A stretch of DNA of 64,000 nucleotides, from positions 1 through 64,000 of the IMG/VR virus record IMGVR_UViG_3300033475_000009; one strand, given 5' to 3'. Below are positions 3,513 to 45,400 of the stretch, piece by piece (the first letter of the stretch is position 1; each line of letters starts with the position of its first letter). A model generated the notes under the pieces. That model worked only from the letters and a program-made list of their open reading frames with translations. It had not been told where the DNA came from and did not search any database. This DNA comes from a virus. Its lineage: Duplodnaviria > Caudoviricetes. Position numbers and translations under genes: made by a program.

Positions 3513-3752
3513 TTATTCTATATTTTTATCCCATTCTTTTAATATACTACTCCAGATTTCTTTGTCTTTATACCAACTCTCAGTTAGTTCTCTACCTTCC
3601 TTATCATACTAACATATACAATACCAACTCTTACCCTGCTTCCAGGATTGTAATACTATATCTTTAAAGTAAGGTATTTGTATATGTAGTAAATCATCTA
3701 TATAAATCTTTATATAATTACCTGTTATCTTTAACTCTACTTTACTATTCAT
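3513..3752 (-). pseudogene. 79-codon ORF interrupted by an in-frame TAG (3609-3611)
   Basis: MNSKVELKITGNYIKIYIDDLLHIQ...WYCIC*YDKEGRELTESWYKDKEIWSSILKEWDKNIE; ATGA overlap upstream and stop 1 nt before the next ATG. Confidence 0.6.
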
Positions 3753-4510
3753 ATACTTTTTAAGAGTTTATATAATTCATAATTCCATCTTGCATCAGAG
3801 AGTGCATTATATTCATTGGTTTGAGTAGGGTAATTAGGATGTGTTTTTATTTCATGTCCATAAATAAATTGATCCTTATTAGATCCAAAATAAATTCTAC
3901 CATCACCTGTTTTATCATAAGCTTCAGTAATCTTATTTTCTAATTCCTGTTTCAGATCAATGCAATACATCGGAAATCCTTTGGGAAGATCAATCATCCT
4001 ACCAAATAACCAGCAGAATACTACCCAATCATAGTCTGAATAAAAGCCATAAAATTGAGGTAGTCTATTTTCTCTTTTTAATAATTCTATTCTGCCTTCG
4101 TAAGTTGATCTAGCTTCAGATGTCATTTTATTCCTAATAGTAAGTCCATTTTTTAAATCTAACTGATCTTTATAAGAAACAAAATCTTTAATCTCTTCTG
4201 CTATTTGTTTATTAGATTTACCAAAATGATTTATAAGTCTAGTAAATTCTTGTAGGTAGACTATCTCAGAGTAGTGTTGATATTTATCATTATTAAAAAG
4301 ATTCTTTAATACATTGTCTCTTAACCACTCATTATTCCAGGCAGCTTTTATATCAAAATCTTTAGATATGGCGTAGTACTCTCTACCATCTTCAGCTACT
4401 ACACCTATTGAAATTAATTCAATAGTATCTACTGGTTTATTACTCATTAAAATATCTAAAAGATTCTTCTTTTGATATTCATGAAATTCTGTATCTATAA
4501 AATATTTCAT
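3749..4510 (-). CDS. DEDD 3'-5' exo(ribo)nuclease, DUF5051/Rv2179c-like
   Basis: N-terminal YFIDTEF, ELISIGVVAEDGREYYA, YSDYDWVVFCWLFGRMIDLP, C-terminal NALSDARWN. Confidence 0.85.
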   Translation of the reverse strand: MKYFIDTEFHEYQKKNLLDILMSNKPVDTIELISIGVVAEDGREYYAISKDFDIKAAWNNEWLRDNVLKNLFNNDKYQHYSEIVYLQEFTRLINHFGKSNKQIAEEIKDFVSYKDQLDLKNGLTIRNKMTSEARSTYEGRIELLKRENRLPQFYGFYSDYDWVVFCWLFGRMIDLPKGFPMYCIDLKQELENKITEAYDKTGDGRIYFGSNKDQFIYGHEIKTHPNYPTQTNEYNALSDARWNYELYKLLKSI

Positions 4511-4511
4511 A

Positions 4512-4877
4512 TTAGTCTATAATCATATAGTTATTTAATTCCATATCTTCTCTTACATAATGATTAAAGCCTAACTCTTTATATCTAGTTTGTATAATTA
4601 AATCTTCACTATTAATTGATTTATTTACATATAACACTCTATCATATACTATATCATATAACTTCATGCCTTCTTTAAGTTCTTTATATGAAATAATATT
4701 TCTTAAAGTAGAACGGATTAATGCTCTCTTTTCATTAAGTAGAGTTAATATATAACTATAATCTACATATGATTTTTCTATGATACTTCCTAATTCTCCT
4801 GTATAAGCATGTGTATGAGGAAGGGATTGAAGTAGTTCTATTTCTACTTCTAATTTAAGTTTTTCTTTTTCTGTCAT
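4512..4877 (-). CDS. hypothetical protein (121 aa)
   Basis: ORF track. Confidence 0.65.
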   Translation of the reverse strand: MTEKEKLKLEVEIELLQSLPHTHAYTGELGSIIEKSYVDYSYILTLLNEKRALIRSTLRNIISYKELKEGMKLYDIVYDRVLYVNKSINSEDLIIQTRYKELGFNHYVREDMELNNYMIID

Positions 4878-4919
4878 AAATATTTATTTTGGGTTGTTTG
4901 CAATTTAGTAAAATATTAT

Positions 4920-4927
4920 TACCTTTA
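4920..4927 (+). promoter_or_regulatory. -7-like promoter element for leader 1
   Basis: TACCTTTA, TTTG at 4897-4900, ATG 4 nt downstream. Confidence 0.55.
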
Positions 4928-4931
4928 CATT

Positions 4932-4985
4932 ATGTTATTCACTAGAAAAAATAATAATGGTAAGGATTGGGCTAGAAGGGTCTAA
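4932..4985 (+). CDS. attenuator leader peptide 1 MLFTRKNNNGKDWARRV
   Basis: 17-codon ORF; KNNNGKDW run matches downstream tRNAs Trp/Gly/Asn/Asp/Lys. Confidence 0.85.
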   Translation: MLFTRKNNNGKDWARRV

Positions 4986-5012
4986 GGCTAAACTATTATA
5001 TAAATATATTAG

Positions 5013-5050
5013 AATCCTTAGACCTGATAAATCTAAGGATTTTTTATTTT
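5013..5050 (+). terminator. attenuator terminator 1
   Basis: AATCCTTAGA/TCTAAGGATT stem + TTTTATTTT; 5' arm can instead pair with GGTCTAAGG (4979-4987). Confidence 0.85.
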
Positions 5051-5052
5051 AT

Positions 5053-5121
5053 ACACTTTAGGCTAAGGTAGCCAAGAGATCTCCAAAATCTTAGGAAGTA
5101 GTTCGATTCTACTAGAGTGTG
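5053..5121 (+). tRNA. trnW: tRNA-Trp(CCA)
   Basis: ACACTTT/AGAGTGT acceptor, GAGAT-CTCCAAA-ATCTT anticodon arm, AGTAG-TTCGATT-CTACT T arm. Confidence 0.85.
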
Positions 5122-5126
5122 CATAA

Positions 5127-5198
5127 GCAGTATAAGTGTTGATGAATACATACCTGACTTCCAATCAGGAGTAGACAGATTATTACTGTCATACTGCT
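5127..5198 (+). tRNA. trnG: tRNA-Gly(TCC), atypical T loop
   Basis: GCAGTAT/ATACTGC, CCTGA-CTTCCAA-TCAGG, T loop ATTATTA, U73. Confidence 0.8.
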
Positions 5199-5203
5199 CT
5201 AAA

Positions 5204-5275
5204 GAGATAGGTAATAGTTCGATTCTATTTATAATATCTTAAAGATATTATAAGGTGTACTGGTGGCATAATCTC
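5204..5275 (+). ncRNA. circularly permuted tRNA-like RNA 1
   Basis: GAGAT - T arm AATAG/TTCGATT/CTATT - closed acceptor-like hairpin TATAATATCTT/AAGATATTATA - D arm GTGT/ACTGGTG/GCAT - ATCTC. Confidence 0.7.
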
Positions 5276-5279
5276 GCAT

Positions 5280-5351
5280 GGGAAGTTAGCTTAATGGTAA
5301 AGCTTCTAGCTGTTAACTAGAAAGATATTAGTTCGAGTCTAATACTTCCCT
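5280..5351 (+). tRNA. trnN: tRNA-Asn(GTT)
   Basis: GGGAAGT/ACTTCCC, TCTAG-CTGTTAA-CTAGA, canonical D and T arms. Confidence 0.95.
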
Positions 5352-5357
5352 CTACAA

Positions 5358-5513
5358 TGTTAGGTGATGAAATTGGTAGACATTTCCCTACTGTCTCTAG
5401 GGAGAGGAACAACTGATAAACTCAGAATAGTGGATTGACCACCAAAGTAAGTTAAAAGATATTTTGTTCTGAAGCTAAAGTCCTCGTGTAAGGTTCGAGT
5501 CCTTCCCTAACAG
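5358..5513 (+). ncRNA. tRNA-like RNA with GTC anticodon and 85-nt variable arm
   Basis: TGTTAGG/CCTAACA acceptor, class II-type D arm, TCCCTA-CTGTCTC-TAGGGA, variable arm closed by GAGGA/TCCTC, T loop TTCGAGT. Confidence 0.8.
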
Positions 5514-5514
5514 C

Positions 5515-5638
5515 TAAGAAAGAAGAATAGGTTAAAAACCTATATAAGTAAATGTTGGCTAGAACTAAAATATTAAAAGTAATATAGATAACGCTTTTAT
5601 TTTATACTTATTGATGTAACTGACAGCATACTTTCTTA
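5515..5638 (+). ncRNA. circularly permuted tRNA-like RNA 2
   Basis: TAAGAAAG - ATAGG/TTAAAAA/CCTAT - ATAAGTA...54 nt...TACTTAT - TG - ATGT/AACTGACA/GCAT - A - CTTTCTTA. Confidence 0.6.
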
Positions 5639-5642
5639 ACCT

Positions 5643-5714
5643 GGTCTATTAGTATAATGGTTATTATATTCCACTGTCACTGGAAAGAAGAGAATTCAAT
5701 TTTCTCATAGACCG
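5643..5714 (+). tRNA. trnD: tRNA-Asp(GTC)
   Basis: GGTCTAT/ATAGACC, TTCCA-CTGTCAC-TGGAA, G73. Confidence 0.9.
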
Positions 5715-5719
5715 CTTAT

Positions 5720-5793
5720 TTCCTTGTAGCTTAATTGGCTAAAGCACCATCCTTTTAAGATGGGTTATGTGAGTTCAAATCTCACCAGGGAAA
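5720..5793 (+). tRNA. trnK: tRNA-Lys(TTT)
   Basis: TTCCTTG/CAGGGAA, CCATC-CTTTTAA-GATGG. Confidence 0.92.
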
Positions 5794-5809
5794 CTAAAAT
5801 TTATTTTAT

Positions 5810-5817
5810 TATCTTTA
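5810..5817 (+). promoter_or_regulatory. -7-like element for HNH 1
   Basis: TATCTTTA-CAAA-ATG, same spacing as leaders 1 and 3. Confidence 0.45.
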
Positions 5818-5821
5818 CAAA

Positions 5822-6271
5822 ATGAAAAAATGTACTAGATGTAAAGAAGAAAAATCTTTTGAATCCTTTAGTATAAAAGGAAATAGAAAAAAAGATAATA
5901 GTATTATATATCAAGATTTTTGTAAGAATTGTCAAAATGAATATACTAAAAAATGGTATATAGAGAATAAAGAGAAACATAAAAGAAATACAGCTATTCT
6001 AAATAAGAAAAACTTTGAAAGTATTCGATATTACATATACAATTATTTAAAAGATAAAGAATGCATAGATTGTAAATCAATAGATTTTAGAACTTTTCAA
6101 TTTGATCATAGAGATAGAAATAACAAAGTTTCAGAAATATCTACAATGGTAAAAAATAGAGTTAGACTAGAATTGATAAAGTTAGAAATAAATAAATGTG
6201 ATATAAGATGTGCTAATTGTCATATCATTAAAACAGGTATTGAAAATAATGCTTGGTGGACAAAATTATAA
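5822..6271 (+). CDS. HNH endonuclease, homing type, with Zn-binding N-terminus
   Basis: CTRC...CKNC; CIDC...FQFDHRD...KCDIRCANCHIIKT. Confidence 0.85.
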   Translation: MKKCTRCKEEKSFESFSIKGNRKKDNSIIYQDFCKNCQNEYTKKWYIENKEKHKRNTAILNKKNFESIRYYIYNYLKDKECIDCKSIDFRTFQFDHRDRNNKVSEISTMVKNRVRLELIKLEINKCDIRCANCHIIKTGIENNAWWTKL

Positions 6272-6312
6272 AATATTTTTGTTTACTATTTTGAACTTTT
6301 AATTATTAATAT

Positions 6313-6320
6313 TAGTTTTG
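6313..6320 (+). promoter_or_regulatory. -7 promoter element for tRNA-Met and leader 2
   Basis: TAGTTTTG matches TAnnTTTG, 8 nt before the tRNA. Confidence 0.55.
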
Positions 6321-6328
6321 TACCATAT

Positions 6329-6401
6329 TGCGAGTAGGACAAGTGGCTAAGTCAGAAGTCTCATAAGCTTTCAGGAGTGGGTTCAATTCCCACACTCGCT
6401 A
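6329..6401 (+). tRNA. trnM: tRNA-Met(CAT), probably initiator type
   Basis: TGCGAGT/ACTCGCT with 1:72 mismatch, GAAGT-CTCATAA-GCTTT, A73. Confidence 0.85.
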
Positions 6402-6412
6402 CTAAAAATAAT

Positions 6413-6481
6413 ATGAAAAATTTATCACTATATAGTTTATGTTCGTATCTCTTATATAAAGAGGTTGATATAACTATATAG
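6413..6481 (+). CDS. attenuator leader peptide 2 MKNLSLYSLCSYLLYKEVDITI
   Basis: 22-codon ORF; 12 consecutive Leu/Ser/Tyr/Cys codons matching the downstream array. Confidence 0.88.
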   Translation: MKNLSLYSLCSYLLYKEVDITI

Positions 6482-6510
6482 TAAATAAAAAACTAATAAA
6501 TAGTTATTTG

Positions 6511-6545
6511 ACCTCTAGGAATAAAATCTTAGAGGTTTTTTATTT
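6511..6545 (+). terminator. attenuator terminator 2
   Basis: ACCTCTAGGA/TCTTAGAGGT + TTTTTATTT; alternative helix 6460-6477 with 6500-6516. Confidence 0.85.
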
Positions 6546-6548
6546 CAG

Positions 6549-6622
6549 GTCCTTATGATGGAATAGGTATACATACTAGTTTTAGAAACTAGGTTCTGTA
6601 GGTTCGAGTCCTACTAAGGATA
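6549..6622 (+). tRNA. trnL: tRNA-Leu(TAG), short variable region
   Basis: GTCCTTA/TAAGGAT, CTAGT-TTTAGAA-ACTAG, A73. Confidence 0.88.
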
Positions 6623-6625
6623 CAA

Positions 6626-6703
6626 GTACCATTGGTGGAATAGGTAGACACGCTACACTTAAGATGTAGTCTTCGGGTATAAGTTCGAGTCTTATATGGT
6701 ACA
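6626..6703 (+). tRNA. trnL: tRNA-Leu(TAA)
   Basis: GTACCAT/ATGGTAC, CTACA-CTTAAGA-TGTAG, miniature UUCG variable arm. Confidence 0.92.
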
Positions 6704-6708
6704 CAATA

Positions 6709-6779
6709 GGGATAAAGGTCAGGGTAACTCACAATGACTGTAAATCATAGGTGCTGAAGTTCGATTCTTCATTATCCCA
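6709..6779 (+). tRNA. trnY: tRNA-Tyr(GTA), short variable region
   Basis: GGGATAA/TTATCCC, ATGA-CTGTAAA-TCAT, TGAAG-TTCGATT-CTTCA, A73. Confidence 0.8.
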
Positions 6780-6784
6780 CTTAT

Positions 6785-6870
6785 AGAGAGTAAACTAATC
6801 AGGGGATTAGACCTTCCTGCTAAGAAGTGTGAAGCCTAAAAACTTTGAGTTTCGAGTACTCTGCTCTCTG
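6785..6870 (+). tRNA. trnS: tRNA-Ser(GCT)
   Basis: AGAGAGT/GCTCTCT, CTTC-CTGCTAA-GAAG, long variable arm, G73. Confidence 0.88.
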
Positions 6871-6876
6871 CTATAA

Positions 6877-6967
6877 GGAGGTTATCTGGCTGGATGAAGA
6901 GCCTGTCTTGAAAACAGGTAAGTCGATTTAATAAGTTGGCTTGTGAGTTCGAGTCTCACAGCCTCCT
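6877..6967 (+). tRNA. trnS: tRNA-Ser(TGA)
   Basis: GGAGGTT/AGCCTCC, CCTGT-CTTGAAA-ACAGG, long variable arm. Confidence 0.9.
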
Positions 6968-6970
6968 CTT

Positions 6971-7042
6971 GTCTAGTATTACTAATGGATAGTATATAGT
7001 CTGCAAAACTATAAATAGAAAGTTCGATTCTTTCACTAGACT
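6971..7042 (+). tRNA. trnC: tRNA-Cys(GCA)
   Basis: GTCTAGT/ACTAGAC, ATAGT-CTGCAAA-ACTAT, U73. Confidence 0.9.
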
Positions 7043-7066
7043 CTTGTTTATTTAAAATAAAATATA

Positions 7067-7074
7067 TAATTTTA
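7067..7074 (+). promoter_or_regulatory. -7-like element for leader 3
   Basis: TAATTTTA-CATT-ATG; TTTACATTATG is identical to leader 1. Confidence 0.5.
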
Positions 7075-7078
7075 CATT

Positions 7079-7153
7079 ATGAAACAGATAATAATAGCCA
7101 TTATTCGTATAGCAGTCAGATCTAATCTGAGTGAGGATAATGTTATTATATAA
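7079..7153 (+). CDS. attenuator leader peptide 3 MKQIIIAIIRIAVRSNLSEDNVII
   Basis: 24-codon ORF; 11 consecutive Ile/Ala/Arg/Val codons matching the downstream array. Confidence 0.88.
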   Translation: MKQIIIAIIRIAVRSNLSEDNVII

Positions 7154-7186
7154 GATACGATTGTTGTAGATTTTGATTAATACACT

Positions 7187-7221
7187 AGCCTTACTCTAAA
7201 AAAGTAGGGCTTTTGTATTTT
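7187..7221 (+). terminator. attenuator terminator 3
   Basis: AGCCTTACT/AGTAGGGCT + TTTGTATTTT; alternative pairing GAGTGAGG (7129-7136) with CCTTACTC (7189-7196). Confidence 0.82.
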
Positions 7222-7223
7222 AT

Positions 7224-7296
7224 GGGGGATTAGTTAAGATGAATATAATAATACACTTGCAATGTATAGTCAGGAGTTTGAGTCTCCTATTCTCCA
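7224..7296 (+). tRNA. trnA: tRNA-Ala(TGC)
   Basis: GGGGGAT/ATTCTCC with G3:U70, ATACA-CTTGCAA-TGTAT. Confidence 0.9.
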
Positions 7297-7301
7297 CTAG
7301 T

Positions 7302-7373
7302 AGGAATATAGTAGAAAGGTTAGCACAATTGCCTGATAAGCAATTAATCCTAGTTCGAGTCTAGGTATTCCTA
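7302..7373 (+). tRNA. trnI: tRNA-Ile(GAT)
   Basis: AGGAATA/TATTCCT, ATTGC-CTGATAA-GCAAT. Confidence 0.9.
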
Positions 7374-7377
7374 CTAT

Positions 7378-7449
7378 AGCTTTATAGTACAATGGATAGT
7401 ACATCTGTCTTCTAAACAGAGAATGATTGTTCGATTCAATCTAAAGCTA
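7378..7449 (+). tRNA. trnR: tRNA-Arg(TCT)
   Basis: AGCTTTA/TAAAGCT, TCTGT-CTTCTAA-ACAGA. Confidence 0.92.
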
Positions 7450-7452
7450 CAG

Positions 7453-7524
7453 GGAAGTATAGTTCAATGAATAGAATCTATAGCTACGGACTATAGGATA
7501 AAGGTTTGAATCCTTTTACTTCCT
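7453..7524 (+). tRNA. trnR: tRNA-Arg(ACG)
   Basis: GGAAGTA/TACTTCC, TATAG-CTACGGA-CTATA. Confidence 0.88.
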
Positions 7525-7529
7525 CTTAT

Positions 7530-7600
7530 TGCTTATTAGTTTAATGGAAGAACACTAGTTTTACATACTAGTAGAGATAGTTCGATTCTATCATAAGCAA
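7530..7600 (+). tRNA. trnV: tRNA-Val(TAC)
   Basis: TGCTTAT/ATAAGCA, CTAGT-TTTACAT-ACTAG. Confidence 0.9.
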
Positions 7601-7605
7601 CATAC

Positions 7606-7680
7606 TGAGAGTTCATATAATGGTTATTATGCCAATCTTATACATTGGTCAAAAGAGTTCAATTCTCTTACTCTCTACCA
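7606..7680 (+). tRNA. trnI: tRNA-Ile(TAT)
   Basis: TGAGAGT/ACTCTCT (1:72 mismatch), CCAAT-CTTATAC-ATTGG, A73, encoded CCA. Confidence 0.85.
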
Positions 7681-7725
7681 TTAAAACTTTTATTATTTTT
7701 ATTTTGTATATATTATACTTTATAT

Positions 7726-7733
7726 TACCTTTG
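7726..7733 (+). promoter_or_regulatory. -7 promoter element for leader 4
   Basis: TACCTTTG, exact TAnnTTTG match; ATG 7 nt downstream. Confidence 0.65.
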
Positions 7734-7740
7734 AATTAAT

Positions 7741-7800
7741 ATGAAGAATGTAACAATCTTTACTCCCTTTACGCAAGAGCATCAGTTTCTGATGGGGTAA
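7741..7800 (+). CDS. attenuator leader peptide 4 MKNVTIFTPFTQEHQFLMG
   Basis: 19-codon ORF; Thr/Phe/Gln/Glu/His make up 10 of 12 codons in the control run, matching the downstream array. Confidence 0.88.
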   Translation: MKNVTIFTPFTQEHQFLMG

Positions 7801-7833
7801 AGGATATTGTTTTCTTCTACATTAAATTTCCTT

Positions 7834-7871
7834 CCCTATCAAACTAAAAATCTGATAGGGTTTTTCTTTTT
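7834..7871 (+). terminator. attenuator terminator 4
   Basis: CCCTATCA/TGATAGGG + TTTTTCTTTTT; alternative pairing TGATGGGG (7790-7797) with CCCTATCA. Confidence 0.85.
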
Positions 7872-7881
7872 ATGTATTTAT

Positions 7882-8382
7882 ATGATAGTAAGTTGTCAAC
7901 ACTGTGGAAAAGATTTTAATTGTACTAGTAGAAGATATAATTTTAATATTAAAAAAGGTTTTAAAATATATTGTTCTAGAGAATGTAATCATAAAGATAA
8001 AATTAAAAACATAATAGTAAGATGTAATTATTGTGGTAAAGAAGTAATTAAAAAACAATATAATCTAAATAAAACTAAATCAGGTAATTATTATTGTAAT
8101 AAGTCTTGTGCTAATTCTATAAATAATTCTTTGTATAAAGTTGGAGAAAAGCATCCTAATTTTATTAATGGTAGATCCTCATATAGAAATATAAAACTTA
8201 GAGATTCTAATTACTGCTGTGAAAATTGTGGAATAACTGATAAAAGAGTTATAGAAGTTCATCATATAGACAGAGATAGAACCAATAATAAATTAGAAAA
8301 TCTTAAAATTTTATGTGCTAATTGTCACTTAATAGAACATTATGAAGAAAGAAAATTAAAAAATGGTGTTAGTGGCAGATAG
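7882..8382 (+). CDS. HNH endonuclease with Cys-rich Zn-binding repeats (166 aa from the corrected start)
   Basis: CQHCGK..YCSREC, CNYCGK..YCNKSC, CENCG..EVHHIDRDRTNNKLENLKILCANCH; start moved downstream of the terminator. Confidence 0.85.
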   Translation: MIVSCQHCGKDFNCTSRRYNFNIKKGFKIYCSRECNHKDKIKNIIVRCNYCGKEVIKKQYNLNKTKSGNYYCNKSCANSINNSLYKVGEKHPNFINGRSSYRNIKLRDSNYCCENCGITDKRVIEVHHIDRDRTNNKLENLKILCANCHLIEHYEERKLKNGVSGR

Positions 8383-8437
8383 GTAATGCGCTAGTTTGTG
8401 AAGCTAGTTTATATGGGTTCAAATCCCATCTAACACC
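8365..8437 (+). tRNA. trnH: tRNA-His(GTG)
   Basis: G-1:C73, GTGTTAG/CTAACAC, CTAGT-TTGTGAA-GCTAG. Confidence 0.92.
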
Positions 8438-8442
8438 TATTA

Positions 8443-8514
8443 GCTCCTGTCGTCTAGTGGCTAGGACGAATGCTTTTCAAGCATTAAAAGAGGGATCGAA
8501 ACCCTTCAGGAGTA
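8443..8514 (+). tRNA. trnE: tRNA-Glu(TTC)
   Basis: GCTCCTG/CAGGAGT, AATGC-TTTTCAA-GCATT. Confidence 0.9.
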
Positions 8515-8520
8515 CTATAT

Positions 8521-8594
8521 TCCAGATTAGTTTTATATGGCTAAAACACATCTCTTGTAAAGATAAGTACTCAGTTCGATGCTGAGATCTGGAT
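8521..8594 (+). tRNA. trnT: tRNA-Thr(TGT)
   Basis: TCCAGAT/ATCTGGA, ATCT-CTTGTAA-AGAT, CTCAG-TTCGATG-CTGAG. Confidence 0.88.
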
Positions 8595-8599
8595 CTTAT

Positions 8600-8672
8600 G
8601 GAACTAAAGCTAATCAGGTGAAAGCACTGGTCTGAAAAACCAGAGAGGTTAGATCGTTACTAACTGGTTCCA
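8600..8672 (+). tRNA. trnF: tRNA-Phe(GAA)
   Basis: GGAACTA/TGGTTCC, CTGGT-CTGAAAA-ACCAG. Confidence 0.88.
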
Positions 8673-8679
8673 CACATAA

Positions 8680-8752
8680 TGTCCTATGGTGTAATTGGCA
8701 ACACGTCTGACTTTGATTCAGGAGAGTCTAGGTTCAAACCCTAGTAGGATAA
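8680..8752 (+). tRNA. trnQ: tRNA-Gln(TTG)
   Basis: TGTCCTA/TAGGATA, TCTGA-CTTTGAT-TCAGG. Confidence 0.92.
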
Positions 8753-8757
8753 CTAAG

Positions 8758-8928
8758 TTATTTTATAATTAATTTTGTTATAAAATTCTTAATTTTAGAT
8801 AATATATTTTCTTCACTAACTATCTGAGTACTAATTTCTTCTATTACCTTAGTATCTTCTACTTTATTTTTATATCTTTTTAAGTGAGTAAATCCACTAT
8901 GTTTTCTATGTCTATTTCTATTTCTCAT
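8758..8928 (-). CDS. small hypothetical protein (56 aa) with basic N-terminus
   Basis: Manual translation MRNRNRHRKHSGFTHLKRYKNKVEDTKVIEEIS...; not in the ORF track. Confidence 0.4.
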   Translation of the reverse strand: MRNRNRHRKHSGFTHLKRYKNKVEDTKVIEEISTQIVSEENILSKIKNFITKLIIK

Positions 8929-8995
8929 ATAACATTTATTTATTTTATATTTAAAATTAATAATTAATTATATGGTTTTATAATTATTTTAATTA

Positions 8996-9003
8996 TATAT
9001 TTG
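8996..9003 (+). promoter_or_regulatory. -7 promoter element at the start of the + strand module
   Basis: TATATTTG upstream of ORF 9030. Confidence 0.55.
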
Positions 9004-9029
9004 TCTAACCAAAACAATAGTAGTTATAT

Positions 9030-9425
9030 ATGTCAGAAGTAGGTACTTCATCCAAGATATTAACTCTTAGGATTAGTCAGGAAGATTATATAGAGAAGTA
9101 CCTACTTCTTTGGAAAGGTTATTTAAATCTTACTAATAGTGATATATCTGTTCTTAAAGAATTTATTATTATATTTCGTAGTATAAATAATACTAATGAG
9201 GATTTAGCTTTCATAGAAGTATTTAATAAAGAAAATAGGAAAGTAGTAGCTGATAGATTAGGCATATCTGAATACTCATTTAATAATATCTTTATGAGGT
9301 TAAAGAATGAGAAAGGTATTATACAGAAGACCAGATATGGATACAGACTTAATCCTAAAGTACTACCAGTAGATGAAATTACCTTTAAATTTAAGATAGA
9401 TGGCATACAATCTAGTACCTACTGA
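9030..9425 (+). CDS. putative winged-helix DNA-binding protein
   Basis: HTH-like RKVVADRLGISEYSFNNIFMRLKNEKGII followed by a beta wing. Confidence 0.6.
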   Translation: MSEVGTSSKILTLRISQEDYIEKYLLLWKGYLNLTNSDISVLKEFIIIFRSINNTNEDLAFIEVFNKENRKVVADRLGISEYSFNNIFMRLKNEKGIIQKTRYGYRLNPKVLPVDEITFKFKIDGIQSSTY

Positions 9426-36447: not shown

Positions 36448-39400
36448 ATGCCAGATCCAAAAGAAAAGAAATCTTCTTTTAATAATATAGATTATAAATC
36501 TATAGCTAATAATATAGTTTCTAGTGATCCTGCTTTTAATCCTTCTCAATACGAAGGAAAACTTGATTTAAAAAGTTCTACTTTAGAAGGTGGAGTACCT
36601 GCTGCTTTAGTAGGTAATCCTTCTGCTGATGAATATCTAGCAGAATTAAAAGCTAAGAGACAAGGACTGTTAGATAAGTTTGCTAATGGTACTTTACAGG
36701 CAGCTAATACTGCTGTGGTAGGTACTATAGGTAATACTGCTGGAGTTATAAATGGTTTGGTAGATTTAGCAGATAATAAATCTTTCTTTGATAACCCTAC
36801 ATTTAAATTTATGGATGAATGGGATGAATCAGTTAAAGAAGCTTTCCCTCTTTATAGATCTAAGAAAGAAATGATAGGATCTGTAGGTGATAGAGTATTA
36901 GATAAAGATTTTCTTTTTGGTGATATTTTTCAAGGTTTAGGGTTTGTAGGTTCTTCTTTAATACCTGGTGCTGGATGGAGTAGAGCAGGTAAAGTAGCCA
37001 GAGGTGCTATATTAGCCAATAGACTAAATAGACTAGAACAATTAGTAGCTAAAGGAGCTGTAACTACAGCTGAATATAATAATCTATCTAAGTTCATTAA
37101 AACTACTGATGATATTATTAGTACAACTTCTAACTTAGGAGCTGCTACTATGGGTAGAATGTATGAAAGTAGACTAGAAGCTAAAGATGTATATGATCAA
37201 ACTTATAATTCTTCTTATGATAAAAAGCTAGATGAATTAAGAACTTCAGGGTTATCAGATGATCAAGCTATGATACAGGCTGATAATTATGCTACTAAGA
37301 AAGCAACTGATGCTAGAAATTATTCTTTTGGAGCTAATATGTTATTATCTATACCTGATTTCTATCAGTATACTAAGATATTTGGAGGTATAGGAAATAA
37401 AGTAAATACTGTTAATAAAATAGCTTCTAAGACTGCTTCAGAGACTATTGAACAAGGATCTAAGGGTTTACTAGGTAAAGCAACTAATCTTCTTGGAAAA
37501 GCTATTAAAAATGAAAAACTTGCAGTAGCAGGTACTGAAGCTTTAGAAGAAGGTACTCAATATAATATCGCTGAAACTGCTAAGAAATTAGCTGAAAGAG
37601 ATTATGATTTTAATGTTTCTAATTTTGTAGACGAGTTTATAAATCAGTCTATTCAGAATATATCTTCTCCTGAGTTTTTAACTTCTTCATTAGCTGGAGC
37701 AGTAATAGGAGGAGGTTTAGGCTTTATAGGTAATAACAATAATACAGATAATCCAAATCTTAAAAATAGTATTCAAGCAGTACAAGAAAATTCAGATCTA
37801 CTAAAATCTACTGAAAAGGCTAGAGATGGATTTTCTAAATTCACTCAGCTAGAACAGAATAAAACAGAATTAGCTGAAAAGATAGCTAATAAAGATACTA
37901 AAGAAGAAGATAAAGTAAGAGCTGAAGTATCACATAGACAATTAGATAATTTATCTTTTGCTCAATCAGTTAAACAAAATGTTGAATCTGGTAAATTAGA
38001 TAATTATCTAATGGAACTAGAAACTATAGGTAATAATACTAAGGAACAAATTACTAGTGATTTTGGTACTACTTCTTTTGAGTATAAATCTAATGGAGAT
38101 GAACTTAGTCCAAAAGAAGTTATTGATAAAAAGATTCAAAGAGCTAAAAGACAAGCAGCCGTTTATCAGGATATACAAACTAAATTTAATAATTTATCTC
38201 AGGTAAGTAAAGATGAACTGTACAATCTTCAAGTAACTACTGATTATAATAGAGAAAAATTAGGAGTAGTTACAGGTATGATAGATAGATTAACTCTAGA
38301 AAAACAAAATTCAGAGTTATCTAAAATTCCTTTTACTGCTGAAAAACAATCAGATCTTAATAATTTAAATAAAGAAAAAGAGTATCTAATTGAAGATCAA
38401 AAGAAAATAGACGAAAGATTTCTAGATATTAAATCAGGTAAAGCAGAAGATAGAAAGTTAAAAACTGACAATCTTCCTACTCCTTCAATCCCTAAAGTAA
38501 AACAAGAACAAGTAGAAACTCCTATAGAGACTATTAAAGCTTCTAAAGAAGGTAAATACAAAGGTTCAAATATTGAGGTGTTAAGTAAAACTCCTATAGG
38601 AGATAGAATTACTTTTAGAGTAGAAGGTAATAACTCTAAAATATCTTTATCAGAAGAAGAATTTAATAAACAAGTATTATCTAAAGGATCAGATACTAAT
38701 TATAATACAGGAGATACAGTTATACTTTCCGATGGTAAAAATGTAATAGATACTAGTAAGTTGTCTAATAATAGAAAAGAATTAGGTACAGTTTCTTTCT
38801 TTAATAGCCCTATAGAATTTAAGTCTAATACTATACTAGATAGAAAAAATGAAATATTATCTGATCCTAATTGGAAATCTAAGTTTAGAATTAAAGTTAC
38901 AGATTTCTATGCTAAGAATAAACCTTTAGCTACTAAAGCTTATTCTAATAGTGAAGTACACACATATACTAATGGAGGAGATAATGCTATAGATATTATA
39001 TTGGAATATAATGATACTATAGATGATAAAGATAATTGGGTTACTTATGGATCTTTACCTTATTCTGGTATGATTAGAGATTCTAAAGGTAAACCTTATG
39101 ATTTATCTACTATGAATTATTCTGATTTTGTTAGTAAATTTTATATAGCAAAAATCATAGATAGTAATGGAGTAGAGCAAACTATAGAATATACTCCTGA
39201 TCAATTTAGCCAGCTTAAAATAGAACAATCTAAATTTAATGAATTTGAAGAGTTGCTAAAACAACAGTTTAATAAAAATAACAAAGAAGAAGCTATACTA
39301 CCTACTAATGTAGTAGATACCAGAATATCCTATTTCGTTAATTCTGTAGATACTTTATTAAACAATATTCTAACTAATCCTGAATTTACTAATAGTAAAT

Positions 39401-42400
39401 TATTAGTTATTTCAGATGGTAAAATAAATAAGGATCTTACTAATACAGATAGAAGATTAGCTATACCTGATTATTTAACAGAAACTTATGGTACTAACAA
39501 TAAAACATTTATAAATGTAGAACTACCTAATGGAGTATCTTTCTGGACTATAGCTTATGTAAAAGGTAATAATAAAAAATTAGAATCAGAAATCATAGCT
39601 GATCTAATTGGGCTTATTACTAATTATAGTAAGATTTCAGTGAATCCTGAAAATGATAATAAAGTAAATAATATAATTAAAGATATAAATAGCAAACTAT
39701 TTATAAGTAATAGTTTATCTAGCTATCTAAGTTTTAGAGCTTATCCTTTAGAAGATAAAACAGGATATAAGATAAAAGTACAATTAAAAACAGATGCAGG
39801 TACTAAATATATAGATATTTTTAATCCTGAAATTACAGTTAAATCTGATGGTACTTCTTTAACTATAAATGACTTAAATTCTTACTTTAGTTTTGATAAT
39901 TTATCTACTTTAATAAATAGTGGATTTAGTAAATTAGGTTCTCCTATTAATATTAATGCTGAGAATTTTATATCCAATAATACTAAAGGTAATCCTAAGT
40001 TAGAGGATTTAACAGTACCTATAGGTTCTCTAAATTATAATATTAAATTAGAATATAATAGTAATAATTTACCTACATTAACTTCTTCTGAAACTTTAGA
40101 TAAATCTACTAATAAGGATTTAGATAATGAAGTAGAGAATGATGTAGCTGATTTAGTAGCTAAGAGCAAAGAGAAAAAGAAAACTAAATTTAGTTTAGAA
40201 TATAATAGTATTGATAATACTAAAGTATCTAGGCAGTATTTAGAAAATATAGCTACTAAGATTAATTCTCAATACAATTTAAATGTATCTATAGAACCAG
40301 TATTTGATAATTCAGGTAGACCAGTTAAAGGTAAATTTGAAAATGGTACTGTTTATCTAAATCCTCAGTTTGCTACAGAAGATACTCCTATACATGAAGT
40401 AATTCACCCTTTTATCTCTATTATAGAGGATAAGAATCCTTTACTATATAAGAACCTTATTAAAGAAATGAAGGCTTCTAGTATAGGTAAAAGAGTATTA
40501 CAGTCAGTCACTGATAATTATTCAGATCTTACAGATACAGAATTAGAACAAGAAGCTTTAGTTTCATTAATAGGATACTATGCTTCAGGAGTTATACCTA
40601 ATGAAGAAAGAGACTTAATATCTGTTATAAAAGCTTTATTTAAGAAAATAGCTTCTTATATTAAATCTATATTTAATAGAGATATAGATCCTTCTGATAT
40701 AGCTACAACTACTACTATTTCTGATCTATCAGATATTATAGTTAATTCTAATATAGATTTAGGTACAGTAATAACTAGAGATTCTAAAGAAGCTAAATTA
40801 GACTTATTGTCGGCTAATGATAGTAATAAGCTAATAAATACTGTAGGAGCTAAAACAGTATTAAGAATTGATACTAGACCTACTAAAGAGAATCTTAAAC
40901 CTATTATTAATTCTATTATAGAACAAACTAAGCTAGAAAATAATACTAGAAATATAGATGCTTCTAATATAGAAGATTTAGAGGAAAGAAAAGCTTATAA
41001 ATTAAAAAGACACTTAGTTTATGAAGCTTTAAATATTCAGGATAATGTAGATAGTATTATTAAATCAGTCACTGAAGATATACTTAAAATGCATTACTCA
41101 GAAGAAGGTACTTATTCTGAAGAAGATGATACTGTACAGAATGTAAATGATGAAGCTGATATTAGAGATTATGAAGAAGGAGTAGAAAATTCAGGCGGTT
41201 GGAATAATGTAGATCCTGAAGTAAGAAACTTTATATATTATAATACTTATACTTATATAGATGAAGCAGGATATGAAATTACTGAAGCTATAGATGGAGT
41301 AAATGTATATAAAACAATACAATCTTCTTTAGCTGATAAAGATCCTTCAGAATTTATTTCTATACTAGAGGTTATTAGTAAATATGATTTACAGCTTAAA
41401 TCAGTATTAGATAATTTTAAAGTAAAAACAGGTTATGGTATAGAAGGTACTAAAACTTTATCTCAATCTAATTTCTATAATAAATTCTTTAAAGCTTTTG
41501 AAAACTCAAAACTTGAATATGTACAAGTATTTGAAAGTAAAAAAGGTGATCTTATAGTAAATTCTGCTAATAAATCTATGACAGCAGGTAGACTATTTAG
41601 TAGATGGAAAAATAATTTTATAGTTAATAAAGATACTTTAAAAGTAAATTCTGATAAATTAAACAAGATTATAAATGATATAGGTTCAGAAGTAATTTCT
41701 TCTCCTATAGATATAGTTAATAGTTTATATACAGGTTTAAATAATATTGGTATAGGAGTATCTAAACCTTTCATAGAATATTCCTTTATATCCGAATCTC
41801 CTTTATCTACTTTTGAAAAAGAAGGAGTAATTAAACTAGATATTAATACTATAAAGAGGCTTTTAACTTCCATTAAAAAAGATATAGATATTTTTGATAA
41901 AGGAGAAAAAGGAAGTACTGGATTATTATATGAAATAGCTGAAGCTGACGCTATATTTAGAACTGATGCTATTGAAGATACTTATAGAGATTCCAGAGGT
42001 AAACTAAGAAATAGTTTTACTAAACAAAATCTAATAACTAAAGCTATTAGTACCTGGAAAAGAAATATACAAGATTCAGATTTTATTAGATCTATTAAAG
42101 GAGATAAAAATAATTATTATCATTATAATTATTTATTTAATAATAAATTATTTGATTCAGAAGCACAACTTAAAGAAGTATTTAAGAATGCTGATTTAGC
42201 TCTTATAGGTGATATAAGATCGGGTAAAGATAAATATACCACTAGAAATATAGTTACAGATGCTTTCTCTAAGATGCAAATAGCCTTATTTAGAAATGCT
42301 ACTTCTCCTAAAGATATCTCTGATAATAGTTCTTTTAAGTTTGATCCTAGAACTGATTCAAGACAAAAATTTGCTTTTGTAGACTTTGGTAAAATATCAG

Positions 42401-45400
42401 ATAAGAATACAGAAATAGCTTTAAGATTACCTATAGATAATAGATTCTTTGATGGTAAAGAGTTTACAAGTTGGTATATAGATCAATTATATGATACTAT
42501 ATTCCTACAAGAATATAATAAGCTTAAGAACTATGAAACTAAAGGAAGATTATATTATTCTAAAGATAAACCTCTTACTTTAAATCCTAATGTAATTAAA
42601 AATAATAAATTGGGTAATGGCTGGATGAATCTATCAGTATTAAATAATTCAGTAATAGATCAATTTAGTACTACTAATAATAAACCTGAATATCTAGAAT
42701 TAAAGGACTTACTTAAAGTAGAAGATTTATCTACTAAAAAAGAATTAGTTAAGAAATATCTTAATGAAACATTTACCAAAAGCTTTAAAGATTATCTAAA
42801 TATATTACTAAGTGAAGGCTCTATTAATAAAGATTCTGATTTAGTAGAGTTAGGTAATATGTATGCTAATAATTATATACTGAGGACTTCTTTTCAACAA
42901 TTAGTTAAAGGAGATTTAGCAGTATCTAAAGATTTAGATGATGACTTAAAAAGAAATGGTAGAGTTACAGCTTATGGAGATTCAGGAATAGACTTTACAG
43001 GAGATAAAACTAATACTTATAAAGTATTGTATATGACTGAAGCTATTAACTATAAGATTAAAGAAGATAATAACTTTAGAGATTTAACTCCAGAAGAAAA
43101 TAAACTTAGAGAAGAAGGTAAAGAAGTAAAAGGTTTAATAGAAATAAATTCAGATGATGCTGGAGTTAGAATGACAGTTAAACATTTTATAGATACTTTA
43201 CAGAGATTAGGCAGGCTAGATGATAATACTTTAAAGATATTAACTAAACTAGATAATGGAGAACACCTAACTCCTGGAGAAATTAATAAGATAGACTTAA
43301 TACCTCTTAAAGGAGTACATGGAGGATTAGATAAATATTTTAAAATGTCTCAACTTTGTCTTACTAAAGAACTTACTTCAGTTAAAGATAAAGATGGTAA
43401 TTGGATACCTAGATTAGGCAGAGAACAATTACATAATATGAGAGAATTAATGGAAAGAAATAATATAGGTTTGGCTATGCCTAAATCTGCTTCTAAATCT
43501 ATTAGTAAATCTTTATTTAATCAAAAACAATTATTTGAGTCTAGTGATTTTGATATAACTGAACATTCAGAAGATGTTAGTTGGGAAGATTGGAGGTTAC
43601 AAGTAGAAAACCAATCTGGTAAAATAGAAATTTCTCAACCTGTGCAGATTTTACAAATGATTGATGGATCTTCTAAAATATCTCAGGATATTAAAGATAA
43701 ACTTCAAACATTATATGAACAACAGAGAGAAGCTGATATTAATGATGCTATGAATATAGCTACAGGTAATACAGTTTTTGGTAAACAAGCTTTAGTAGAT
43801 AAGTTTTATGATAATGCTATATCTTCAGCTGCTGATGCTAATACTCTAGAGTATTTATCAGGTAATGAAGGAGAATTTAAATATAATCCTAACTTACCTC
43901 ATATAGCATTTACCTTTGAAAATTATTACACTTCTCATTTTAATAAAGGAGTATTAGCGCAGAAAGTAGCTGGTTATAAATGTACATTAGCTCCTTCTAC
44001 AGGCATTAAAGTTTTAAGGAATACTCAGACAGGAGATATAGTAAGATCTGATGCCTATGAAGCTAATAAAACAGAATTTAAAGGTAAAGAATACCAAGTA
44101 TCAGAATTAAGAATTCATTCAGGCATTTCTCCTTATGCTGAATGTTTAATGACTAAATCTCAAGCTCAGAAATTAGGGCTAGTTATTGGAGATAGTATAG
44201 ATCAGGAAGTATTTAAAATGGTAGGAACTAGATTACCTTGTCAAGGTTACAGTTCTATGATACCAATTAAAATAGTAGATTTCTTACCAGAATATTATGG
44301 TTCTACTATTATAGCTCCAGAAGAAATAGTTTATATAGCTGGTTCAGATTATGATGTGGATAGTCTTTTTATAATGAGAAAAGAAGCTTATTTAGATAAA
44401 GAAGGTAATACTAGATATTATACTTATAATGAGTCTAATAATGATCTTAGATGGAATGATTATTACAACTATTTAACTACAGCTAATAAGAATGTAGTTT
44501 CTAAGATTAGGCAAGGTATGCCAGTAGAAGAAGCTTTAAAAGCTTATAATTATTCTTCTACTAAAGAAGAGTTCTTAGCTAAAGAAAAAGAAACTGGTAA
44601 GTTTTTTAACTCTAAGTATTCAGTAACTAATGAGATAGTTAATATCTATGAACAAATATTAACTGATCCTAAGATGTTACCTGACCTTCAGGAACCAGTT
44701 ACTACATCAGGATTTGATATTATAGGTAAGGCTATTTACTTTGGATTATTTAATGAAGGTAGTAAAATGAATTACTTCCATAATTCAGACAAAGCCCTTA
44801 AAAAACATTTTGAATTAGCTACACAAGGTAAAAGAGATGTAGGTCCAGCAGCTTTAGGATCTAGTATTAGTAGTTTCTTTAAAAAACATAAAGTTACTTT
44901 AAATGAAGGAGATGAAAAAAGAAATATCCCTTCATGGCATTTTATGTTTAATAATAAACTAGTTAATAATTTCTATGAAGATGATGTAATAGATTTTGAT
45001 TTTGTATATAAAGATGGTAAACCAGTATTAAATGAAGAAGGCATGCCTCTTACTACAGATATAGCTACTGTATCTAAACAGGAAGTACATTCAGGATTAA
45101 TATCTATTACAGTAGATAACCAGAAAGATCCTGTTTGCTTTATGCTTAATTTAGATGAAACTAATACAGCTATAGCCTCTACAATGATACATTTAGGTAT
45201 AGGAGGTAAAGGATTTATAGCTACTTTAATGAACTCAGGACCAGTTAAATATGGTATAGGTAATCCTTTTGAAGGAAATAGAAACCAAGTTACTAAAGAA
45301 TCTTTAGTTAAATCTATGATGGGTAAAGCTTCTGAAAAAGAAGAAAATGATATAGCTGCTCTATATAAACATTTATCTAATATATCCTCTTCTACTTTTA

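Follow-up and report, generated by a model that had tools for sequence, protein, structure and literature searches.

Predicted leader-peptide attenuators matched to the tRNA arrays of a crAss-like phage

The DNA considered here, called the window below, is the 64,000-nucleotide stretch at positions 1 to 64,000 of the IMG/VR virus record IMGVR_UViG_3300033475_000009 (Duplodnaviria; Caudoviricetes). It belongs to the single-contig genome of a soil phage, 90.5 kb with 27% G+C, which encodes a crAss-type terminase, portal and major head protein; the last is at most 37% identical to that of any named phage, and the relatives with known hosts all infect Bacteroidota. Between a leftward replication module, which includes an RNase H gene (3749-4510), and a rightward structural module lies a plus-strand region of 3.9 kb with transfer RNA (tRNA) genes. 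In the window, 21 tRNAs are called by ARAGORN and one more, at 5127-5198, by Rfam; relaxed ARAGORN identifies the latter as Gly-UCC and also gives a Ser-GCU at 6783-6871. The region is made of four blocks, each standing behind a short open reading frame (ORF) and a hairpin with a U-tract, and the amino-acid sets of the four arrays are disjoint. The leader ORFs, terminators and tRNA identities listed in the original prediction, which was made from the letters of the DNA, were all found again by ORF calling, ARAGORN and Rfam searches and folding. It is likely, on evidence that is computational throughout, that each of these tRNA blocks is governed by a ribosome-mediated transcription attenuator of the trp/his/ilv type.

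The four units of the window (W1-W4, with leaders L1-L4) lie on the plus strand, and each has a leader ORF of 17-24 codons, a segment (region 2) that can pair with the 5' arm of the terminator (region 3) as a 2:3 antiterminator, and the terminator hairpin itself (3:4). In unit 1, a sigma-A type -7 box (TACCTTTA, 4920..4927) ends 4 nucleotides before the AUG of leader L1 (4932..4985; MLFTRKNNNGKDWARRV, then stop), whose control run KNNNGKDW occupies codons 6-13. Region 2 (GGTCTAAGG, 4979..4987) extends across the stop codon and can pair with 5016-5024 in a duplex of -14.9 kcal/mol (z -4.1). The terminator (5014..5050) has a 9-bp stem, 5014-5022/5032-5040, and a U-tract at 5041-5050. It is followed by array 1 (5053..5794, from ARAGORN, Rfam and relaxed ARAGORN) with Trp-CCA, Gly-UCC (5127-5199), Asn-GUU, a tRNA-like element (5358-5514), Asp-GUC and Lys-UUU. 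Leader L2 (6413..6481; MKNLSLYSLCSYLLYKEVDITI, then stop) has the control run LSLYSLCSYLLY. Its region 2 (6460..6477) can form an antiterminator with 6500-6516 (9 + 8 bp with one bulge) or a 1:2 hairpin with 6427-6437, and its terminator (6510..6546) has an 11-bp stem and a U-tract. Array 2 (6549..7043, from ARAGORN and relaxed ARAGORN) encodes Leu-UAG, Leu-UAA, Tyr-GUA, Ser-GCU (6783-6871), Ser-UGA and Cys-GCA.

Unit 3 opens with a -7 box (TAATTTTA, 7067..7074) 4 nucleotides before the AUG of leader L3 (7079..7153; MKQIIIAIIRIAVRSNLSEDNVII, then stop), whose control run is IIIAIIRIAVR. Region 2 (GAGTGAGG, 7129..7136) is complementary to 7189-7196 (CCTTACTC), the terminator (7187..7221) has a 9-bp stem and a U-tract, and ARAGORN reads array 3 (7224..7680) as Ala-UGC, Ile-GAU, Arg-UCU, Arg-ACG, Val-UAC and Ile-UAU. 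In unit 4 the -7 box (TACCTTTG, 7726..7733) stands 7 nucleotides before the AUG of leader L4 (7741..7800; MKNVTIFTPFTQEHQFLMG, then stop; control run TIFTPFTQEHQF). The original prediction had this leader in the right place with its start one base off, at 7742. Region 2 (TGATGGGG..AAGGA, 7790..7804) again runs across the stop codon and can pair with 7829-7841 (z -4.1), and the terminator (7834..7871) consists of an 8-bp stem, 7834-7841/7853-7860, and a U-tract. An HNH endonuclease gene (7882..8382) has been inserted downstream of the L4 attenuator, ahead of the tRNAs, and is presumably under the control of that attenuator. Array 4 (8365..8753, from ARAGORN) holds His-GUG, Glu-UUC, Thr-UGU, Phe-GAA and Gln-UUG. 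The terminators of the window end 3-13 nucleotides before the first tRNA or, in unit 4, before the HNH gene. A simple terminator scan detects two of the four (L2 and L3); all four fold as a hairpin with a U-tract, with hairpin energies from -9.5 to -14.2 kcal/mol.

The leaders spell the amino acids of their own arrays, as had been claimed: in all four units of the window, every amino-acid identity of the array is present in its own leader. The longest cognate runs are of 8 (L1), 12 (L2), 11 (L3) and 7 codons (L4), with probabilities of 3.6e-4, <2.5e-6, 2.5e-6 and 2.7e-4, respectively, under the codon usage of the phage's own long ORFs. Four-way wobble by U34 is needed for GGT in L1 and for GTC and GTT in L3, and the L4 run holds two non-cognate codons, ATC (Ile) and CCC (Pro). 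When the four leaders were permuted against the four arrays, none of the 24 pairings equalled the true one, which has 44 cognate codons; the second-best has 31, and the mean is 19. This bears out the earlier contention that four such matches would hardly arise by chance. Under strict wobble rules the true pairing was still the best (38 versus 27). The window has no tRNA-Pro, yet L4 has the CCC codon; in L001 (204-279), a related contig described below, a tRNA-Pro stands directly 5' of the homologous tRNA-His, at the position of the HNH gene. A tRNA-Pro may thus have been lost from array 4 of the window, because L001 carries it where the window has the HNH gene.

The terminase and RNase H genes served as anchors in the retrieval of related loci, and all 197 loci were scanned for a terminator-like hairpin at most 45 nucleotides from a tRNA together with any ATG ORF ending just upstream. 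At least three tRNAs were found only in five of the fetched loci and in the genome of the window. Four of these five (L032, L052, L053 and L191) have units of the same type, as does the two-tRNA locus L001; the fifth, that of crAss001, has none. This gives nine further units in five distant crAss-like contigs (one each in L032, L052 and L001, three each in L053 and L191), which have 37-76% TerL or 40-42% RNase H identity. The leader MVMKQLHLNQPKPLKLFKG of L032 precedes tRNAs for Pro, Gln, His, Leu and Arg. In L053, leader a (MKSISTYTSTFAASYEVK..) stands before Thr, Ala, Val, Ser, Lys and Glu; leader b (MKKGLQHDFRFDGQLPL..) before Pro, Gln, Leu, Leu, Phe, Asp, His and Gly; and leader c (MQSRRNNNIRINSICINWRN..) before Asn, Trp, Met, Ile and Arg. 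L191A (MNNSTTYFRPCFYPPFRR.., with the run YFRPCFYPPFRR) precedes Pro, Tyr, Phe, Cys and Arg, the 36-codon leader of L191B covers all 11 identities of its 12 tRNAs, and L191C (MILFQHSYQSQSQ..) precedes Gln and His. The leader of L052, (GTG)KNLLYSCYSSFSFK.., is followed by Ser, Ser, Tyr, Phe and Cys, and that of L001, MKQNIIIAICKAVRATLIGKDSII, by Pro and His. The groupings of amino acids differ from those in the window, and in eight of the nine units the leader follows its own array. The covariation of leader and array content that the original prediction had proposed to look for was thus found in these eight units and is absent from L001.

Over all 13 units, with the counter-example L001 included, the leaders hold 149 codons cognate to their own arrays, compared with a mean of 70.9 in permuted pairings (standard deviation 11.6, maximum 128). 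The observed match was not reached in any of 200,000 permutations, and the same was true at the strict codon level. An amino acid is present in the leader in 61 of 65 cells with the tRNA and in 94 of 195 without it (Fisher 3e-12), and each of the 20 amino acids is used more in leaders whose array encodes its tRNA. Among the residues concerned, His is found in 4 of 5 leaders with the tRNA and 0 of 8 without, Trp in 3 of 3 versus 1 of 10, and Pro in 3 of 4 versus 1 of 9. The match extends to codon boxes: where an array has both boxes of Arg, Leu or Ser, both are used in the leader (5/5), and in single-box arrays the box present accounts for 15 of 19 leader codons, where 9.3 would be expected (P=0.007). 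Because the match reaches isoacceptor boxes, sensing of tRNA species would be favoured over sensing of amino acids.

The 2:3 duplexes of W1-W4 have energies between -11.1 and -14.9 kcal/mol, and they are stronger than those of shuffled sequences with P of 0.001-0.018; 10 of the 13 units surpass their shuffled versions in duplex strength at P<=0.02. Region 2 is located at the stop codon or a little 5' of it. Equilibrium folds were computed with the footprint of a ribosome masked and moved codon by codon. In 7 of the 13 units the terminator was favoured without a ribosome or with the ribosome near the stop codon, and it was lost when the A-site was in the control run. Since attenuation is kinetic, nascent-transcript folds were also used, in which the transcript was ended before the 3' arm of the terminator. 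In these, an upstream partner captures region 3 (0.6-1.0) for as long as the ribosome has its A-site at any codon of the cognate run, and a few codons past the run this capture drops to about 0-0.6 (at most 0.4 in most) in W1-W4, L032, L053a, L053c, L191A and L052. Co-transcriptional folding had been among the checks suggested in the original prediction. A clear 1:2 hairpin is seen in W2, L052, L053c and L001. Codon statistics, the mutually exclusive 2:3 and 3:4 pairings and the covariation among relatives together uphold the claim that these are leader-peptide attenuators tuned to their own arrays.

A box TAnnTTT[G/A] ends exactly 4 nucleotides 5' of the start codon in 8 of the 13 leaders and 5 or 7 nucleotides from it in two more; as background, the 4-nucleotide geometry is found at 0.5% of all ATGs of the genome and at 2 of 97 long ORFs. 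The sigma-A box of Flavobacterium psychrophilum is TAnnTTTG at -12 to -5 (PMC9723704), and leader-peptide attenuators upstream of amino-acid operons have been reported in the same organism (PMC9723704). Given that position of the box and the 4-nucleotide spacer, transcription would start on the A of the AUG, and the leader transcripts are therefore predicted to be leaderless mRNAs made by the host RNA polymerase. Transcription by the host enzyme had been an assumption of the original prediction, and the Bacteroidota sigma-A -7 boxes before the leaders support it. L2 is arranged in another way: a tRNA-Met-CAU (6329-6402) with its own sigma-A -7 box (TAGTTTTG, 6313-6320), together spanning 6313..6402 on the plus strand, is transcribed, ungated, before this leader, and 10 nucleotides of A-rich spacer separate the end of the tRNA from the AUG. 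L053b has the same order, tRNA-Met and then leader; both leaders would therefore share a transcript with the tRNA-Met and be translated from an AUG inside it. A scan for E. coli-type promoters was uninformative (32 found, 28 expected), and among the other ATGs of the genome with the same box geometry no further attenuators were found.

Unit anatomy, codon matching, covariation and promoter geometry are computational observations, and from them we infer that the leaders are translated, that translation is coupled to RNA polymerase, in which direction regulation runs and what its physiological trigger is. Host sigma-A RNA polymerase would start at or next to the leader AUG and make a leaderless mRNA, on which a ribosome would translate the run of codons read by the tRNAs encoded downstream. 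If any codon of the run were decoded slowly, the ribosome would stay there, region 2 would be free to pair with the 5' arm of the terminator, and the array would be read through. If decoding were fast, the ribosome would reach the end of the ORF and cover region 2, the terminator would form and the array would be off. The phage thus probably makes a tRNA block only when the matching codons are decoded slowly. Each unit would combine 4-12 tRNA species in an OR gate and, because its product is the sensed tRNA itself, would be a negative-feedback controller of the supply of one tRNA group.

Several results weigh against attenuation by this route. In W2, L052, L191A and L053c the terminator was favoured in equilibrium folds at every ribosome position, so that the switch in these units must be kinetic. 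The ribosome-free shortened transcripts of W1, W3 and W4 still prefer the 2:3 pairing, and a 1:2 hairpin is not universal. The units were partly curated by eye, and the rule-based scan missed W4, L191A and L052. In addition, crAss-like phages carry an RNA polymerase of their own, which may or may not respond to these terminators. Translation of leaderless transcripts would have to be coupled to RNA polymerase, and leaderless mRNAs are otherwise rare in Bacteroidota, at 3.7-5.5% (PMC9723704 among the sources). L001 belongs here as well: it is the closest relative (76% terminase identity), and its leader lacks codons for both of the tRNAs that follow, Pro and His, which makes it a homologous locus of the very kind that had been named beforehand as refuting attenuation by matched leaders.

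In alignment, L001 joins a promoter region of the L1 type to a leader of the L3 type whose control run carries substitutions; its tRNA-His is a homologue of the one in array 4 of the window. The terminator is by far the weakest, at -4.2 kcal/mol compared with -9.5 to -18.9 kcal/mol elsewhere, and the 2:3 complementarity is no better than chance (z = -0.1). On these features L001 can be read as a chimeric, deletion-derived and decaying unit; it also shows that mismatching units can exist.

The same attenuators could serve a different purpose, namely counter-defence as suggested in the original prediction, with the arrays being switched on when anticodon nucleases (PrrC/RloC-type, PARIS AriB) or infection-induced decay of tRNAs remove those of the host. 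Sensors that respond to tRNA species and not to amino acids would fit this purpose, as would the separate channels per tRNA group, which suit targeted depletion, and amino-acid starvation logically cannot be cured by extra tRNA. Neither in the window nor in the related loci was any link from the units to a defence system found, and the leaders cover nearly all amino acids, far beyond the usual nuclease targets (Lys, Glu, Gln and Thr). A phage with 27% G+C would need its A/T-ending codons to be served in any case; the mismatch of these codons with the host tRNA pool would be a sufficient source of shortage, and simple feedback between supply and demand by way of decoding speed accounts for the data no less well than a trigger by anticodon nucleases. 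Counter-defence as the purpose is therefore considered rather doubtful. Slightly less doubtful, and put forward as a tentative proposal, is a broader one, by which a clade of crAss-like phages would carry an evolvable roster sensor: leaderless test ORFs would gauge the decoding speed for each phage tRNA species in real time, switch the matching block, tune the supply by themselves and automatically replace tRNAs destroyed by nucleases.

Two further explanations dispense with an attenuation switch. The leader ORFs might be translated and act through RNA processing or stability, such as RNase access or maturation of tRNA precursors, instead of termination. Across the units the hairpins are only 3-20 nucleotides from the first tRNA and could affect RNase P/Z, and L2 and L053b lie directly 3' of a tRNA-Met; all hairpins have a U-tract of 5-9 residues behind them, as in intrinsic terminators, however, and the complementarity of region 2 to the terminator's 5' arm is significant, as a termination switch would require, which makes processing very improbable. 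It could also be argued that the hairpins are constitutive terminators or insulators and that the ORFs are chance frames or unrelated micropeptides in A+T-rich DNA, where, at 27% G+C, many short ORFs have a high content of Ile, Asn, Lys, Leu and Tyr. The permutation, isoacceptor-box and per-amino-acid statistics speak against such a coincidence, as do the covariation across phages, the specific promoter geometry and cognate runs with the rare residues Trp, His, Cys and Pro only where the tRNA is present, and chance can be regarded as scarcely credible. Ribosome-mediated attenuation of the arrays is the explanation that we prefer to both.

The leader-peptide attenuators of enterobacteria (ilvGMEDA, ilvBN and thr; trp, his, leu and pheA) resemble the phage units in the short ORF with a run of regulatory codons, in the competition of a 2:3 antiterminator with a 3:4 terminator and in a stop codon placed for the masking of region 2; those of ilv and thr are also alike in that one leader senses several amino acids. 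They regulate biosynthetic enzymes, whereas the phage units regulate tRNAs. The phage units also differ from them in having up to 11 amino-acid identities per leader, a match at the level of isoacceptor boxes, predicted leaderless transcripts and a Bacteroidota sigma-A promoter, and in being phage-borne. No Rfam leader family matched within 4500-9200, and sequence homology to the enterobacterial attenuators was neither found nor expected. The pheST attenuator of E. coli, with its pheM leader, comes near in function, since there too a component of the translation apparatus is attenuated by feedback on the decoding of its cognate codon; unlike in the phage units, an aminoacyl-tRNA synthetase is controlled, one amino acid is sensed and the system is cellular. 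T-box riboswitches are alike in that attenuation reports the state of a specific tRNA and acts on translation-related targets. Unlike the phage units, they recognise uncharged tRNA by direct binding to a specifier codon and the T-box sequence, without a ribosome or an ORF, and they are typical of Firmicutes, not Bacteroidota. A T-box was rejected as an explanation of the elements in the window, which are about 110-140 nucleotides long and contain ORFs; there is no Rfam T-box match in 4500-9200 even at E<=1.

Searches for the same arrangement in described phages were negative. Only single tRNAs were matched when the region was compared by blastn with named phages, and no cultured phage with such units was found, crAss001 and Flavobacterium phage FpV4 having been examined. 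Bacteroides phage crAss001 (Steigviridae), with 23 tRNAs, is like the phage of the window in its arrays of about 20 tRNA genes with HNH interruptions and unlike it in being without units of leader ORF and terminator. FpV4, a cultured relative with 30% identity in the major capsid protein, has no tRNAs. The HNH gene as a search anchor gave three partial matches and no new units, and contigs of two soil metagenome DNA runs, one of them probably the source of the record, re-cover the locus together with short divergent tRNA fragments. Among the listed sequencing runs with the locus there is no RNA run. At about 1655-1670 of crAss001 (L034), a TATCTTTG box and a 4-nucleotide spacer precede a mini-ORF, ATG ATT AGA AGA TAA, which is followed by tRNA-Gln and tRNA-Arg(UCU); it has no terminator and may be a coincidence. 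On the minus strand of L053 (reverse-complement about 4300-4450), a very Lys-rich ORF of 48 codons without a terminator stands directly 5' of tRNA-Lys and tRNA-Glu.

Some other features of the locus deserve mention. A further HNH endonuclease gene (5822..6271, plus strand) lies between array 1 and the tRNA-Met and has its own -7 box (5810-5817), 4 nucleotides before its ATG; an array of L053 is likewise split by an HNH gene. The element at 5358-5514 in array 1, about 155 nucleotides long, has a good acceptor stem and T arm with a long internal insertion. Relaxed ARAGORN gives it as tRNA-Gln(CUG) with a 78-nucleotide intron, and the original prediction as a tRNA with a GUC anticodon and a long variable arm. 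Array 1 also has two gaps without a tRNA call, 5200-5279 and 5515-5642, for which permuted tRNA-like RNAs were suggested in the original prediction. Directly 3' of an ungated tRNA-Met, L052 has a permuted transfer-messenger RNA (6350-6730; RF04321, 59.6 bits); no Rfam match to such an RNA was found in the window. In the structural module, an ORF of 3513 amino acids at 36448-46989 is, by size and position, a candidate for the giant virion RNA polymerase of crAss-like phages.

To our knowledge, next to nothing has been described of how phage tRNA genes are regulated. Phage tRNAs are usually viewed as constitutive cargo that offsets codon-usage mismatch or the loss of host tRNAs. A search of the full-text literature, in which older subscription literature was not covered, gave no account of leader-peptide attenuation of tRNA genes, phage or cellular. 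The present case brings, on computational grounds, leader-gated tRNA arrays to crAss-like phages of about 90 kb, together with a comparative test inside the group. As leader content tracks array content over evolution, leaders can help to identify odd phage tRNAs. An example is provided by unit c of L053 and unit B of L191, in which CAU-anticodon tRNAs are called Met in arrays whose leaders have AUA codons; some of these may be lysidine-type tRNA-Ile2. If the attenuators work as proposed, a textbook mechanism would have found a new use, with direct feedback on tRNA supply through several independent channels per genome. The leaders would be a sequence-readable record of the tRNAs that the phage treats as limiting, and the units would provide a test of transcription-translation coupling and of leaderless translation in Bacteroidota. 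They would also represent a natural multi-input (OR-gate) sensor of decoding speed, usable as a reporter of tRNA availability, and would offer a concrete route to test inducible tRNA synthesis as a phage answer to tRNA-cleaving defences.

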